Shown here: positions 2,240-46,725 of the stretch, piece after piece
Numbering within the stretch: the first letter of the stretch is position 1
Layout: each line of letters begins with the position of its first letter
Origin: Octopus vulgaris
Lineage: Eukaryota
NCBI GenBank assembly: GCA_951406725.2
Contig: OX597819.1
Coordinates: 129,084,001 to 129,148,000 of the forward strand
Direction of reading: 5' to 3'
DNA: 64,000 bases
Translations under genes and position numbers: made by a program
The notes under the pieces: generated by a model
Told to the model about the DNA's origin: nothing
Seen by the model: the letters and a program-made list of their open reading frames with translations, nothing else
Database searches by the model: none

Positions 2240-2549
2240 ACTTTTTCTATTCCTGAGCGTCTTTTGTTTTTTTCGTAAATTCGTAAACTCTTCCTATCTC
2301 TCTCTCTCTCTCTCTCTCTCTCTCTCTCTATATATATATATATATATATATATATATATATATATATATATATGGTGAGAAAGTTGGTGTGTGAAAGTAC
2401 GTGGTTGGATGTATAAAAAAATAGAAAAGAGTGAAAAAGCTACAGAAGGCTTGTGTTATAAGATTAAAGAATATATTTAAGTCGTTATGTTAGAAAAATG
2501 TTAGAAAATTTTGTGTATAGTAACATAGTTTTATGGAGAAATAACCGGT

Positions 2550-2582
2550 AAATTTGAAAAGTATATACGAAACCGGTTATTT
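2550..2582 (+). ncRNA. Minimal type-I hammerhead-like motif, U3-A8 core variant
   Basis: AAAT-TTGAAAA-GTA-TA-TAC-GAAAC-CG-GTT-ATTT; stem I AAAT/ATTT and palindromic stem III. Confidence 0.55.
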
Positions 2583-2604
2583 CTCCAAAAACTATGTTAC
2601 TATA

Positions 2605-3707
2605 AACTTAGATAAACTTAGATATGTTTCGACCAAAGATTGGTCCAGGTCATGTCTAACTTAATAGCACCACCTGATAGGATTATTCGAATCCTGTTTA
2701 AGTCAAGTTTTGTTCAAGTAGTGAGTTCTTGTTGGGTGAGTTGTATCCAGTTTTGTTCAAGTAGTGAGTTCTTGTTGGGTGAGTTGTATCCAATTATGGG
2801 TGGCTTGTCTGGTATTCTTTGAAGGAATCTATCCAGACTCTGTTTAAAGTTGATGGGATCCTTTTCCTCTTTGATCTCCCTCGGGACAATGTTAAATAGG
2901 GCAGGGCCTGTTGAGGAAAAGAAATTATGTTGCAGTGTACATGTATGTTGTGATCTTGAATTGGGCAGGGGACGTATAGCCCGTGGTCCAGGTCTTGGAT
3001 GAACCTTGAAGCTAATGTTTAGGTCGTTTGGGCAAAGTTGGCGGTATATTTTCCACATCGTACAAATGATGTACCGCTCACGGCGACGCTGGAGAGAGTA
3101 AAGTTTCAAGGCTTTAAGGCGATCCCAATAATCGAGAGCAGCCATGCCTTCAATTTGTTTAGTGAGTGCCCTCTGGGGTGACTCAATTCTGGAGATGTTT
3201 TTTCTTGTGTGAGGAGACCACAATGGGCAGCAGTATTCAAGGTGTGGCCGTACAAAGGAGGAAAAAAGTGGTATGATGACACCTTGTTCTCTGGACCGGA
3301 AAGTTCTTAAGATCCAGGAACTCATCCTACGAGCTATATCGACCTTCTTGTTGATGTGGGCACTCCAACTGAGATCGTCATCAACAATTACACCCAGGTC
3401 TCTGATATTGTTAGAGGCTGTGAGCGGTTCCCCTGAAGGAAGAGAGTATGGTTGTTTTAGTGAGGAATTTCTTCCAAAATGCATCAGCTCAAATTTTCCC
3501 TCATTCAGTTGCATTTTGTTTCTGCCTGCCCATTGACTCACAGCATATAGATCAGACAGGAGTTGAGTTCGGTCTGCTTCTTCATTGACGATTTGCTGGA
3601 GCTTAGTGTTATCAGCAAATATTTTCACTTTGCAGTAATGTACGACACTGGAAAGGTCGTTTACGTAAATTATGAAGAGTAGCGGACCCAAAACAGTTCC
3701 CTGGGGA
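2605..3707 (-). mobile_element. 5'-truncated CR1-group LINE (RT C-terminal half plus 3' UTR)
   Basis: ORF 2714-3712 with PQGTVLGPLLF, FADN (FADD-like) and RPHLEYC. The 3' end has a stem-loop and a short tandem tail (tctaagttta). Confidence 0.9.
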
Positions 3708-3809
3708 CACAAAATTTTCTAACATTTTTCTAACATAACGACTTAAATATATTCTTTAACCTTATAACACAAGCCTTCTGTAGTGTTTTCACTCTTTTCT
3801 ATTTTATAT

Positions 3810-4222
3810 ACTCTTTTACTCTTTTACTTGTTTCAGTCATTTGACTGCGGCCATGCTGGAGCACTGCCTTTTTAATCGAGCAACTCGACCCCGGGACTTA
3901 TTCTTTTTTGTAAGCCCAGTACTTATTCTATCGGTCTCTTTTGCCGAACCGCTAAGTAACGGGGACATAAACACACCAGCATCGGTTGTCAAGCAATGCT
4001 AGGGGGACAAACACAGACACCCAAACACACACACGCATATATATATATAACATATATACGACAGGCTTCTTTCAGTTTCCGTCTACCAAATCCACTCACA
4101 AGGCTTTGGTCGGCCCGAGGCTATAGTAGAAGACACTTGCCCAAGGTGCCACGCAGTGGGACTGAACCCGGGACAATGTGGTTGGTAAACAAGCTACTTA
4201 CCACACAGCCACTCCAGCGCCT
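3810..4222 (-). mobile_element. SINE family B (tRNA head, CORE-like segment, internal microsatellite, (AAAAGAGT)n tail)
   Basis: Minus strand: A-box TGGCTGTGTGG, B-box GGTTCAGTCC, gcaccttgggcaagtgtctt; many copies in the window. Confidence 0.9.
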
Positions 4223-4420
4223 ATATATATATATATATATTTCATATATATATATATAAGTTATGTTATATTCCGTTAGAAATGTTGTAGGGTACAGTGT
4301 AAAGCTCGCCCACCTTTCGAATTACCCAGTACTGTAGGTAGTATTATTATATACTTCCAAGTTTAAATTTAGGCATTCGTCATGTGTGAATATAAAACTG
4401 ATGAAATTGGAGTTTGTTTA

Positions 4421-4744
4421 TTATTCGCTACAATTGTTTCGGCACAACGTAGTTCTCCAAGAATACAGGTATTTGATTATGCAACTTTTTGCTTGCGTAA
4501 TGAGATCTAGTTGTGTTTCCTCAGGCGATATATACGAGTATTGTCTCCCTTAGTTTAAAATCTTCGAATTTTAGGCCATCTTCTCTGTTTGTCGAGGTCT
4601 GAATTTATTAGCTGCTTGGATACACATGGTGCGTGCCGCGAGGAGGAAACACAACTAGATCTCATTATGCAAACAAACAGTTGCACAATCAAATACCTGT
4701 ATTCTTGGAGAACTACTTTGTGTCGAAACAATTGTAGCGAATAA
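4421..4744. repeat. Fold-back palindrome (arms 4421-4522 and 4643-4744)
   Basis: ~100-bp arms are near reverse complements. Confidence 0.9.
4425..4528 (-). ncRNA. Type-I hammerhead-like motif with long stem II
   Basis: Minus strand: TCGC-CTGAGGA-AACACAA...TTGTGCC-GAAAC-AATT-GTA-GCGA; stem I TCGC/GCGA perfect, palindromic stem III. Confidence 0.65.
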
Positions 4745-43890: not shown

Positions 43891-44436
43891 TATCTTTTCA
43901 ATTCGTTTATAGCATAATTCATTATACCGGCTACCATCTAATGATACTGACTAGTAAGTCAGTTTATCGCGGTTGTATCATAGTTATATCGATATAATGC
44001 AGGATAAATATAACAATAACAGGAAATCTAGGAGGGAATTTATAAATGTTTAATACACTGCTACACGCGTTTCCACAAATCACATGATTTTGACATCAGA
44101 GTCGTTATCCTTGGGATTAGTACAGTCTAGTCCGTATCATCCGTGGACCATCAGATGATACTGCATTATTGGATGAATCACAGAAGGATGTTTATCTCTT
44201 CTTGCCAGAAGGCCAAATTTAGCAGAATCAGCAGTTGAAATGAATCTAGTCGCAGTTTTGATTCCGGTACAGGATGTTGCGTCATTGAACAAAGTTCTTC
44301 ATTTCACGTTGAACCATTTTTCTCAGCAGGAAATTACTACCAGTCTAAAGCTAGCACAGATCTTTTTTTTTCTCTCTCTCTCCAGCTACCAAATACCCGA
44401 TATTTTACTGGATCTATATTGGGAGGGGGCCGAGCT

Positions 44437-44810
44437 GTATTTCGTTTGCAGTTACGTTCTGAGTTCAAATTCCGCCGAGGTCGACTTTGCCTTTCATCCT
44501 TTCGGGGTCGATAAATTAAGTACTAGTTACGCACTGGGGTCGATGTAATCGACTTAATACCTATGTGTGTCCTTGTTTGTCTCCTCTGTGTTTAGCCCCT
44601 TATGGGTAATAAAGAAATAGAAAGAGGTATTTCGTCTGCCGTTACGTTCTGAGTTCAAATTCCGCCGAGGTCGACTTTGCCTTTCATCCTTTCGGGGTCG
44701 ATAAATTAAGTACCAGTTACGCACTGGGGTCGATGTAATCGACTTAATACCTATGTGTGTCCTTGTTTGTCCCCTCTGTGTTTAGCCCCTTGTGGGTAAT
44801 AAAGAAACAG
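44437..44810 (+). mobile_element. SINE family A tandem dimer (headless units)
   Basis: Two units, each starting gtatttcgt. Confidence 0.9.
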
Positions 44811-45632
44811 GTATCTATGTCTGTTCGTGACTGCATCGGTACTTAATACAACTAGTGAAAGCATGACAGATTCTGCCAGGTCATACTCACTTGCGAGTGA
44901 TGTCTATAACGGGAGACCAGTTATATAAACCTGTTTGAATCATACCAATTACTCTACAGCTGTATTTTCTGTCAATAAAAATACAGCTGTCACAGAAAGC
45001 TGTCGCTTCTTTTATCGTTTCTACTCCAATTCATTCTCATTTTTCCTTCTGTTACTCACTGTTTCTGTTTATTTTTTATCGACTCCAGTCAAGCGAGACA
45101 GACACAGCTCATCCTTCTACTCTCGTTCAGTTTACTGTTACGGTCACCCCCTTGCCCACCCGTTATCAATCTCTCCCTATACTCATCTTTTGACAGAACC
45201 AAAAACAGTAAGCTCATTACTATATTAGGATACACACACACACACACACACACACACACACACACACACACACACACACACACACACACACACGCACACA
45301 CACACACACACACACACACATATATATATATATATATATATATATATATATATACGCATACATAAATATTATGTATTTTATTTATTTGCAATTATAGACG
45401 TTTATTACACACATTATATCATATATCAAGTATACGAATATAATATACTAATGTTATATATGCAGTAAAACTTTTATCTTTTACTTGTTTCAGTCATTTG
45501 TCTGCGGCCATGCTGGGGCACCACTTTGAATTTTTAGTTGATCCCAGCACTTATTTCTTTAAGCCTGGTACATATTCTATCAATGTCTTTTATATATATA
45601 TATATATATATATATATATATATATATATATA

Positions 45633-46019
45633 CGAGCAAAACGCCCCCCGTCCATTGGACGGTGCTGAGTTGTCAAACATTTAAACCAAATTTTCTCAAA
45701 ACCACTTCTCCGACCGTCCCATAGGTCTCCCCTTTGAGAACCTCTGATTTAACCTAAATTTGAGACACCGTGCATTTTTCTCGCGTACGCGAAGTATCGA
45801 TCGCAACAGCTGATCTACTTGCGCGTACAAATGCAAGTTCCCACGGATTTATCGATCGCATTCTCACCTGGAATCGATTTTTATAATTTCTTTCAAGATT
45901 TATATACGCCCTGATACCGTCGGTATCTATAAATCAAATTTGAACGCAATCAGATGGAGGATGCCCGAGATCCTGGAAGACATACACAAAGATAGACAGA
46001 ACGGATTTTATATAGTAGA
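45633..46019 (-). mobile_element. Non-autonomous Helitron-like element
   Basis: Minus strand: A|TCTACTATATAAAA 5' end, hairpin ccgtccaatggacgg, CTCG|T 3' end (CTAG variant). Confidence 0.7.
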
Positions 46020-46027
46020 TTACATTT

Positions 46028-46250
46028 AAGGCGGCAAGCTGGCAGAATCGTTAGCACGCCGGGCAAAATGCTTGACGGCATTTCGTACGTCTTTATGTTC
46101 TGAGTTCAAATTCCGCCAAGGCTGACTTTGCCTTTCATCCTTTCGGGGTCGATAAGATAAGTACCAATTCAACACTAGAGTCGGTGTTATCGACTTATCT
46201 CACCCACTACAACCGAAATTGCTGGACTTGTGCCCAAGTTTGAAACCAAT
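46028..46250 (+). mobile_element. SINE family A variant
   Basis: Family head and core with an alternative tail (gaaattgctggacttgtgcccaagtttgaaacc). Confidence 0.85.
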
Positions 46251-46475
46251 ATATATATATTACATATATAATAGTAGTGTGTTATATATCCTTCTATACG
46301 TTTCGGCCCTGAAAATATACTCCATGCTGGTGTATATTTTATTTTATTTGATATACGTATAGATGTATATTATGTGTATATATATATATATATATATATA
46401 TATATATATATATATATATATATATATATATATATATGTATAAGGGTGAAAAGGAACACACGAGTTGATATATAT

Positions 46476-46725
46476 GAAAAAACAAGTCAAGATAGAAAAT
46501 GCTAACATAATTTTATAAAGAACATTTCAGTACCGGTTTCGGTCATTTTGAGACCTTTTCAACTGTAACGATTAAATAATTAAATTTTGTTATTTAATTA
46601 TTTAATTATTTAGTTATTTAATTATTTAATCGTTACAGTTGAAAAGGTCTCAAAATGACAGAAACCGGTACTGAAATGTTCTTTATAAAATTATGTTTGC
46701 ATTTTCTATCTTGACTTGTTTTTTC
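46476..46725. repeat. Near-perfect fold-back palindrome between TA runs
   Basis: Arms 46476-46585 and 46616-46725 differ at about 2 positions; AT-rich spacer. Confidence 0.95.
46528..46565 (-). ncRNA. Minimal type-I hammerhead-like motif, U3-A8 variant (mirror at 46636-46673, +)
   Basis: CAG-TTGAAAA-GGTC-tcaaaat-GACC-GAAAC-CG-GTA-CTG; all three stems pair. Confidence 0.68.

Follow-up and report, generated by a model that had tools for sequence, protein, structure and literature searches.

We analysed a 64,000-nt stretch of the Octopus vulgaris genome (GenBank assembly GCA_951406725.2, contig OX597819.1, positions 129,084,001 to 129,148,000; hereafter, the window), which carries six palindromes with hammerhead ribozyme motifs, here called E1 to E6. 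We consider it probable that these palindromes are head-to-head pairs of 5′-truncated 3′ ends of repeat families, and that each pair arose in a single insertion event, with the two ends of a TA-rich break priming separate cDNAs. E1, E5 and E6 almost certainly belong to coding families of Penelope-like elements (PLEs). Priming from both break ends had been proposed in a first-pass annotation of the window; it is also the mechanism favoured here, now with counts over many pairs.

One tailed arm per pair

Related copies were sought in the 2.8-Gb genome; for each query, the best 40 of 60 to 2,235 candidates were scored and 30 loci were returned. Copies of a family share their 3′ end positions, mostly running into (TA)n, and vary in 5′ reach. 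In each family the 3′ end falls at one of two places, each marked by a short TA-rich motif, and an arm that extends to the distal one is referred to as tailed. Tails were excluded from the search queries. Exactly one arm was tailed in 45 of 46 head-to-head pairs (E6, 17/17; E5, 10/10; E1, 9/10; E2, 9/9; p = 7e-13 against 0.5). With a redefined tail, E4 contributed four one-tailed pairs out of four, which brings the total to 49/50 (p = 5e-14). E3, whose trial tail was not usable, was left out of the count. Single arms made up 91 of the 186 copies in E6, E5, E1 and E2, and 35 of these 91 unpaired copies were tailed.

The length of an arm, which ranged from 43 to 1031 nt, did not follow the tail: among the 46 pairs scored, the tailed arm was longer in 21, shorter in 18 and equal in 6, with both arms tailed in the remaining one. 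At locus L025, a tailed arm of 335 nt faces an untailed arm of 1031 nt. The E1 pair of the window was scored as tailed-longer because a long interspersed nuclear element (LINE) splits its right arm; on direct reading, its untailed arm is longer and holds the ribozyme core, and the split becomes 20 versus 19.

In E6, E5, E1 and E2 alike, two arms had more variants in common when they came from the same pair than when they came from different ones: 0.47 versus 0.15 in E6 (17/17 pairs, permutation p 0.004), 7.56 versus 2.40 in E5 (9/10 pairs, p 1e-4), 1.56 versus 0.57 in E1 (9/10 pairs, p 0.025) and 1.14 versus 0.38 in E2 (7/9 pairs, p 0.002). The association with (TA)n made in the first-pass annotation held as well, since among 37 pairs a run of (TA)4 or longer was found at both ends in 25, at one end in 10 and at neither in 2. 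Pair ends thus lie mostly within (TA)n, where target-site duplications cannot be read.

Anatomy of the six palindromes

All six inverted repeats were confirmed in the window, with arm identity of about 74-98%, and no mutual similarity was found when E1 to E6 were compared with each other, as the first-pass annotation had stated. The inverted-repeat arms lie at 2411-2516 and 3707-3811 in E1 (95% alike), 4421-4522 and 4643-4744 in E2 (94%), 35711-35818 and 35835-35948 in E3 (about 74%), 42335-42443 and 42465-42573 in E4, 42672-42903 and 42946-43177 in E5 (96%), and 46468-46585 and 46616-46733 in E6. The elements themselves are arranged as follows.

2374..2549, minus strand: E1 left arm, putative Neptune-like PLE family; begins within stem III and has no core; a tail of ~37 nt abuts (TA)22
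2550..2604, plus strand: E1 right arm, 5′ part; U3-A8 hammerhead core UUGAAAA at 2554-2560, GAAAC-CG-GUU at 2569-2578
2605..3706, minus strand: 5′-truncated LINE fragment splitting the E1 right arm; 334-aa frame at 2714-3718 (RVT_1, E=1e-7)
3707..3811, plus strand: E1 right arm, 3′ part; terminates at the short (untailed) end
4259..4637, minus strand: E2 left arm; full hammerhead with core CUGAGGA at 4518-4524 and GAAAC-AAUU-GUA at 4429-4440; a tail of ~130 nt runs to a TA run
4643..4792, plus strand: E2 right arm; truncated within the core, GAAAC-AAUU-GUA at 4725-4736; untailed, followed by (TG)n
35678..35953, both arms: E3, an old degenerate head-to-head pair; core at 35868-35874 and GAAAU..GUA at 35898-35910, both on the plus strand; left end approximate
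about 42175..43570, both arms: E4, a head-to-head pair; GAAAC..GUA at 42370-42381 (minus) and 42527-42538 (plus); a tail of ~200 nt on the right arm, which E5 interrupts
42573..43176, both arms: E5, a putative Hydra-like PLE pair nested in the E4 right arm; CUGAAGA hammerhead in both arms, cores at 42784-42790 (minus) and 43059-43065 (plus)
46437..46733, both arms: E6, a putative Neptune-like PLE pair; U3-A8 hammerhead in both arms, cores at 46556-46562 (minus) and 46639-46645 (plus)

A family-specific tail is therefore found on a single arm in E1, E2, E4, E5 and E6 (~37, 130, 200, 100 and 31 nt), in each case beyond the ends first given for the palindrome. In E5 it occupies 42573-42671 on the left arm, with (TA)21 on the right side; in E6 it is likewise on the left arm only, and (TA)n flanks both sides. 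The six palindromes had been listed as separate, and one of them, at 42672-43176, turned out to sit inside E4.

The variable 5′ reach of the copies and their arm lengths agree with the unequal 5′ truncation that had been proposed from the spacers of E1 and E2. The true centre of E1 is near 2549/2550. The 5′ part of its ribozyme does lie in what had been taken for a spacer of 1.2 kb, within the right arm, but 1.1 kb of that spacer (2605-3706) is the 3′ fragment of an unrelated LINE inserted later, presumably of the CR1/L2 type. In E2, the entire ribozyme is in the left arm, and the right arm begins inside the core. E4 lacks a core in the window because both of its arms are truncated 3′ of the CUGAAGA core of the family, which longer copies carry ~125 nt upstream of GAAAC.

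Two more palindromes were noticed in the window. The one at 61900-62315 (89%) lies in (TA)n, has a one-sided extension and is 76-85% related to an outward hammerhead pair in L235; it probably represents a stump whose truncation point is downstream of the ribozyme. The other, at 49238-49464, adjoins a TA run and has relatives in L150 and L281, with no hammerhead in the strict scan.

Coding Penelope-like elements behind E1, E5 and E6

Copies of E1, E5 and E6 reach upstream for up to 1.1-1.7 kb. Three E6 copies (L012, L015 and L030) and four E1 copies (L129, L136, L147 and L148) continue into frames in which a C-x4-C-x2-C linker precedes a GIY-YIG domain that has CxxC inside it. Reverse transcriptase (RT) motifs lie further upstream in copies of this type and are present in L185; the linker, the CxxC inside GIY-YIG and downstream histidines were read by eye in L181, L185 and L136, in keeping with the linker and CCHH motif of Neptune/Nematis-type PLEs. 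E5 copies (L054, L059 and L041/L184) show RT, DKT, a CxCx5C linker and GIY-YIG without internal CxxC, and more than 1 kb of non-coding sequence separates the open reading frame (ORF) from the ribozyme. RT was located upstream on the same strand for E1 (L185, 4483-4992; RVT_1, E=2.6e-4, below the cut-off), for E6 (L181, in a frame that runs from the C-terminal part of RT on) and for E5 (L184, 4007-4546; motifs by eye, no Pfam match). GIY-YIG (PF01541) was matched in L181 (E=0.0025), L192 (E=0.0016) and L182 (E=1.5e-4), all below the cut-off.

From motifs read by eye, E1 and E6 are assigned as putatively Neptune-like (Neptune/Nematis type) and E5 as putatively Hydra-like. Papers identified by PMC number are cited here and below from their accessible text. 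The Neptune clade (PMC8557442) has the CX2-5CxxC linker and CxxC inside GIY-YIG seen in E1 and E6, features that do not separate Neptune from Nematis. The Hydra clade of the same paper matches E5 in DKT, CxCX5C, the absence of CxxC from GIY-YIG, CxxC before a conserved E, the (TA)n target and the hammerhead; the E5 translations (L184, L054 and L059) also lack the CCHH motif, as in Hydra-clade PLEs. On this sequence evidence, the E1, E5 and E6 palindromes are stumps of coding elements. The PLE origin suggested earlier is thus borne out for these three by longer copies that are continuous with RT/GIY-YIG ORFs, and the description of the population as "ORF-less" fails for them.

For E4, the ORF-less description is doubtful: one copy (L363) has a remnant of a Hydra-type endonuclease on the same strand, ~1.7 kb upstream (tblastn E=1e-8), ~120 nt past the end of DNA homology with L364. 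No ORF was found for E2 and E3, and no RT was found upstream in the E2, E3 and E4 copies examined. Upstream walking from 20 further E2 loci gave no linked ORF. An 857-aa Hydra-like frame at L370 was considered as the ORF of E2 and rejected, since it is on the strand opposite to the E2 copy there. This frame (L370:2206-5470, plus strand) is uninterrupted, contains DKT, RT motifs and GIY-YIG, and has a hammerhead ~600 nt downstream.

Hammerhead motifs and their polarity

The hammerhead layout reported for each of the six palindromes is supported by family alignments, which point to a minimal type-I hammerhead in the terminal repeat, with E3 atypical. In the E2 left arm it has stem I UCGC/GCGA and a long stem II. 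Standard tools detected these motifs poorly: a strict descriptor run on the window matched only E1 (2554) and, at 35195, a single copy that is not among the six, and none of E1 to E6 appeared as Hammerhead_1 among the 150 of 200 Rfam matches listed for the window. The call therefore rests on the alignments and on enrichment in the genome. In 80 arbitrary stretches of 10 kb (800 kb), a looser descriptor gave 39 matches, whereas two shuffled versions of the repeat-masked sequence yielded 4 each. Stem III was perfectly palindromic in 20 of the 39; 18 had (TA)5 no more than 200 nt away in the 3′ direction, and 9 had it equally near in the 5′ direction. The single copy in the window (35094-35201, minus strand) is an Rfam Hammerhead_1 match of 25.5 bits (E 0.07), below the 34-bit cut-off; it lies outside any palindrome, and its 3′ end faces (AG)41(TA)15.

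Ribozyme sense is minus in the left arm and plus in the right arm in six of six palindromes, i.e., outward, just as first described. The same polarity was seen in the arbitrary stretches. With arms >40 nt and a spacer of at most 600 required, 100 inverted-repeat rows were retained; a hammerhead was present in nine of them, eight outward, one in both directions and none inward. These nine rows come from seven loci, all of which were outward, i.e., head-to-head (sign test p=0.016). The other 91 rows gave no hammerhead match; most palindromes in the 800-kb sample are not shown to bear ribozymes. In the E6, E5, E1 and E2 family loci, 46 neighbours were head-to-head and two tail-to-tail. A nested multi-copy inverted structure at L193:2097-3646, with arms 98-100% alike and CUGACGA hammerheads, appears very young.

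Whole palindromes fold as long duplexes (237 pairs and -350 kcal/mol for E5), and two long E4 copies folded without constraint gave no clean hammerhead fold. If a transcript read through a palindrome, its two arms would pair, and ribozyme folding would likely be blocked. Since cleavage is dispensable in vitro (PMC11167929) and duplexes of whole palindromes would likely trap the ribozymes, the latter are probably inherited passengers.

Proposed insertion from both ends of a break and alternative explanations

According to the mechanism that we favour, a PLE protein would cut TA-rich DNA, and both free 3′ ends would prime cDNA on the RNA of one source element. Synthesis would begin at the distal site from one break end, giving the tailed arm, and at the proximal site from the opposite end, giving the untailed arm; the two cDNAs would stop independently and would then be joined at their growing ends. 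The PLE protein of Anolis PAc (Poseidon; PMC11167929), a predicted dimer, acts on both strands of AT-rich DNA, cutting and extending them. Two nearby internal start sites on the RNA, whose spacing corresponds to the tail, are described for it, in parallel with the two 3′ end positions seen here; the accessible text of that paper offers no explanation of head-to-head pairs.

A competing explanation, which we regard as unlikely, keeps the PLE origin and makes the second arm by self-priming: one cDNA (or antisense RNA) folds back and copies itself, stopping before the tail, and later central deletions scramble the lengths. A single tail per pair and variants common to both arms are likewise expected under it, and PMC3846280 argues for self-priming from junction palindromes and proposes antisense RNA. 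Under fold-back, however, the tailed arm should in every case reach further 5′, and the untailed arm was longer in 18 of 46 pairs, in some by hundreds of bases; in the E1 pair of the window, the core sits in the untailed arm. That two separate insertions hit one and the same (TA)n tract is scarcely credible. The families are abundant (60-3,532 first-look candidates per query) and do nest in each other, as E5 does in E4; yet polarity and tail combinations should then be random, TA should separate the arms, and their variants should be unrelated. None of this was observed, and independent insertions are largely refuted by the 45 one-tailed pairs out of 46, one tail per pair being what excludes them. 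We attach just as little weight to miniature inverted-repeat transposable elements (MITEs) or fold-back DNA transposons with hammerhead-like words by chance. The palindromes are short and lie at TA-rich sites, and the window does contain true DNA transposon inverted repeats (46805-48351). However, arm lengths vary, many copies are single arms, ends are asymmetric with no fixed-length symmetric terminal inverted repeats, and copies continue into RT and GIY-YIG frames; this refutes the MITE reading for E1, E5 and E6, in agreement with the first-pass annotation, which had also set MITEs aside.

A further alternative concerns E2, E3 and perhaps E4, which could be genuinely non-autonomous hammerhead retroposons that lack ORFs and depend on PLE proteins acting in trans; we find this doubtful. 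No same-strand PLE protein match was found upstream in the E2 and E3 loci examined, and E2 follows the one-tail rule in 9/9 pairs. On the other side, the E2, E3 and E4 families are old, only the best 40 candidates were scored per search, and one E4 copy reaches the endonuclease remnant mentioned above. Because the gap between ORF and ribozyme exceeds 1 kb in E5, any ORFs of E2 and E3 could lie beyond the 1.5-kb flanks.

Several observations weigh against insertion of PLE ends from both sides of one break. Once a pair is inserted, deletions spanning its centre could leave either arm the longer at random, and the shared variants could stem from gene conversion. The accessible text of PMC11167929 describes a start site without homology to the DNA that is cut; here, both ends lie at TA motifs. 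Two tail-to-tail neighbours (L147:1417-1504 and L022:640-1501) have both arms tailed, the opposite of the head-to-head rule, and family counts are no measure of polarity because palindromic queries enriched the sets for pairs. The first definition of the E4 tail, whose probe was body sequence and was replaced, gave one one-tailed pair of two, and the change was made after the data had been seen; the E3 trial tail segment was on both arms in two other pairs. Junction microhomology of at least 3 nt was found in 4 of 34 cases (p=0.19), a count for which the exact-match walk often broke down (large negative overlaps); overlaps taken from local alignments were discounted, since chance extension inflates them. 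As regards coding capacity, PLE frames score under the curated Pfam cut-offs (GIY-YIG 18.5-22.4 versus 22.6 bits; RVT_1 21.2 versus 29.6), three of them have no relevant Pfam family at all, the ORF evidence for E4 comes from one copy (L363), and tblastn of 30 E2 and 30 E3 loci gave no same-strand upstream PLE protein match.

Comparison with known systems

The palindrome layout itself is a published PLE footprint, and the pair-level counts are the addition made here. An inverted 5′-truncated copy, a one-sided tail and (TA)n bias are described for endonuclease-positive (EN+) PLE insertions in PMC8557442 and PMC3846280 (Adineta vaga Pen2a). The octopus pairs agree with EN+ insertions in the head-to-head inverted copy, 5′ truncation, single-end tail and microsatellite/(TA)n bias. 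Unlike the insertions reported in these texts, the two copies of a pair are reduced to stumps (about 100-300 nt each), and the tails of E5, E2 and E4 (~100, 130 and 200 nt) exceed the reported 30-40.

Minimal type-I hammerheads of metazoan PLEs with a U3-A8 core variant, and pairs on opposite strands 100-700 bp apart, are reported in PMC4209133. A short or palindromic helix III, a short helix I, the U3-A8 core and many single truncated copies are common to both sets; helix II regions of up to about 60-125 nt (E2, E5 and E4) are unlike those described there. Animal non-LTR (non-long-terminal-repeat) retrozymes (bioRxiv 10.64898/2026.07.22.740005), as far as their description is accessible, also have PLE-derived type-I hammerheads; they are direct tandem ORF-less units, unlike the head-to-head pairs here, and no direct tandem neighbours within 1.6 kb were found among 50 neighbour pairs. 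Counts of tail side versus arm length at the level of pairs were not found in the accessible text of the literature searched, a search that older key papers and supplements fall outside. Similar tail counts may appear in Arkhipova 2006 and in Evgen'ev and Arkhipova 2005.

Other features of the window

Two DNA transposon-like elements are present. At 46805-48351, inverted repeats of 166 bp flank a transposase-like frame (47584-48090), an element that we take to be of the Tc1/mariner type; at 52612-53909, inverted repeats of 39 bp flank two transposase-like frames (52766-53752), presumably of the mariner type. A unit of ~185 nt resembling a short interspersed nuclear element forms head-to-tail arrays at 5812-6181, 36004-36929, 44437-44807 and 56287-56825 and is also scattered in both orientations. 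Same-strand 3′ fragments of retroelements are clustered after (AAT)n runs at 9009-14914, and a fragment of eukaryotic large-subunit ribosomal RNA is found at 51271-51800 on the minus strand.

Possible implications for PLE insertion and RNA editing

The accessible text of PMC8557442 and PMC11167929 treats the way in which PLE inverted copies and tails arise as an unsettled question. The octopus genome offers thousands of short pairs as a test set for the insertion mechanism: one tail in 49 of 50 pairs, arm length unrelated to the tail and shared variants together separate priming by two ends from fold-back better than single examples do. A near-strict rule may be put forward tentatively for Neptune-like and Hydra-like elements alike. 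One RNA-protein complex would prime both (TA)n break ends, always at one proximal and one distal UA-rich site, and the cDNAs would then prime each other, this being the normal second-strand route of PLEs. Insertion by such a rule would leave behind short-loop hairpins in the tens of thousands, which could provide a large part of the animal's substrate for adenosine-to-inosine editing. Extrapolated to 2.8 Gb, seven loci per 0.8 Mb would amount to some 25,000 palindromes with a hammerhead, as a rough estimate. Penelope is heavily edited in lizard, and octopus has very high hyper-editing and double-stranded RNA potential; octopus was left out of the repeat-based analysis, according to the accessible text (PMC5625713). 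A possible share of PLEs in octopus editing is directly testable.

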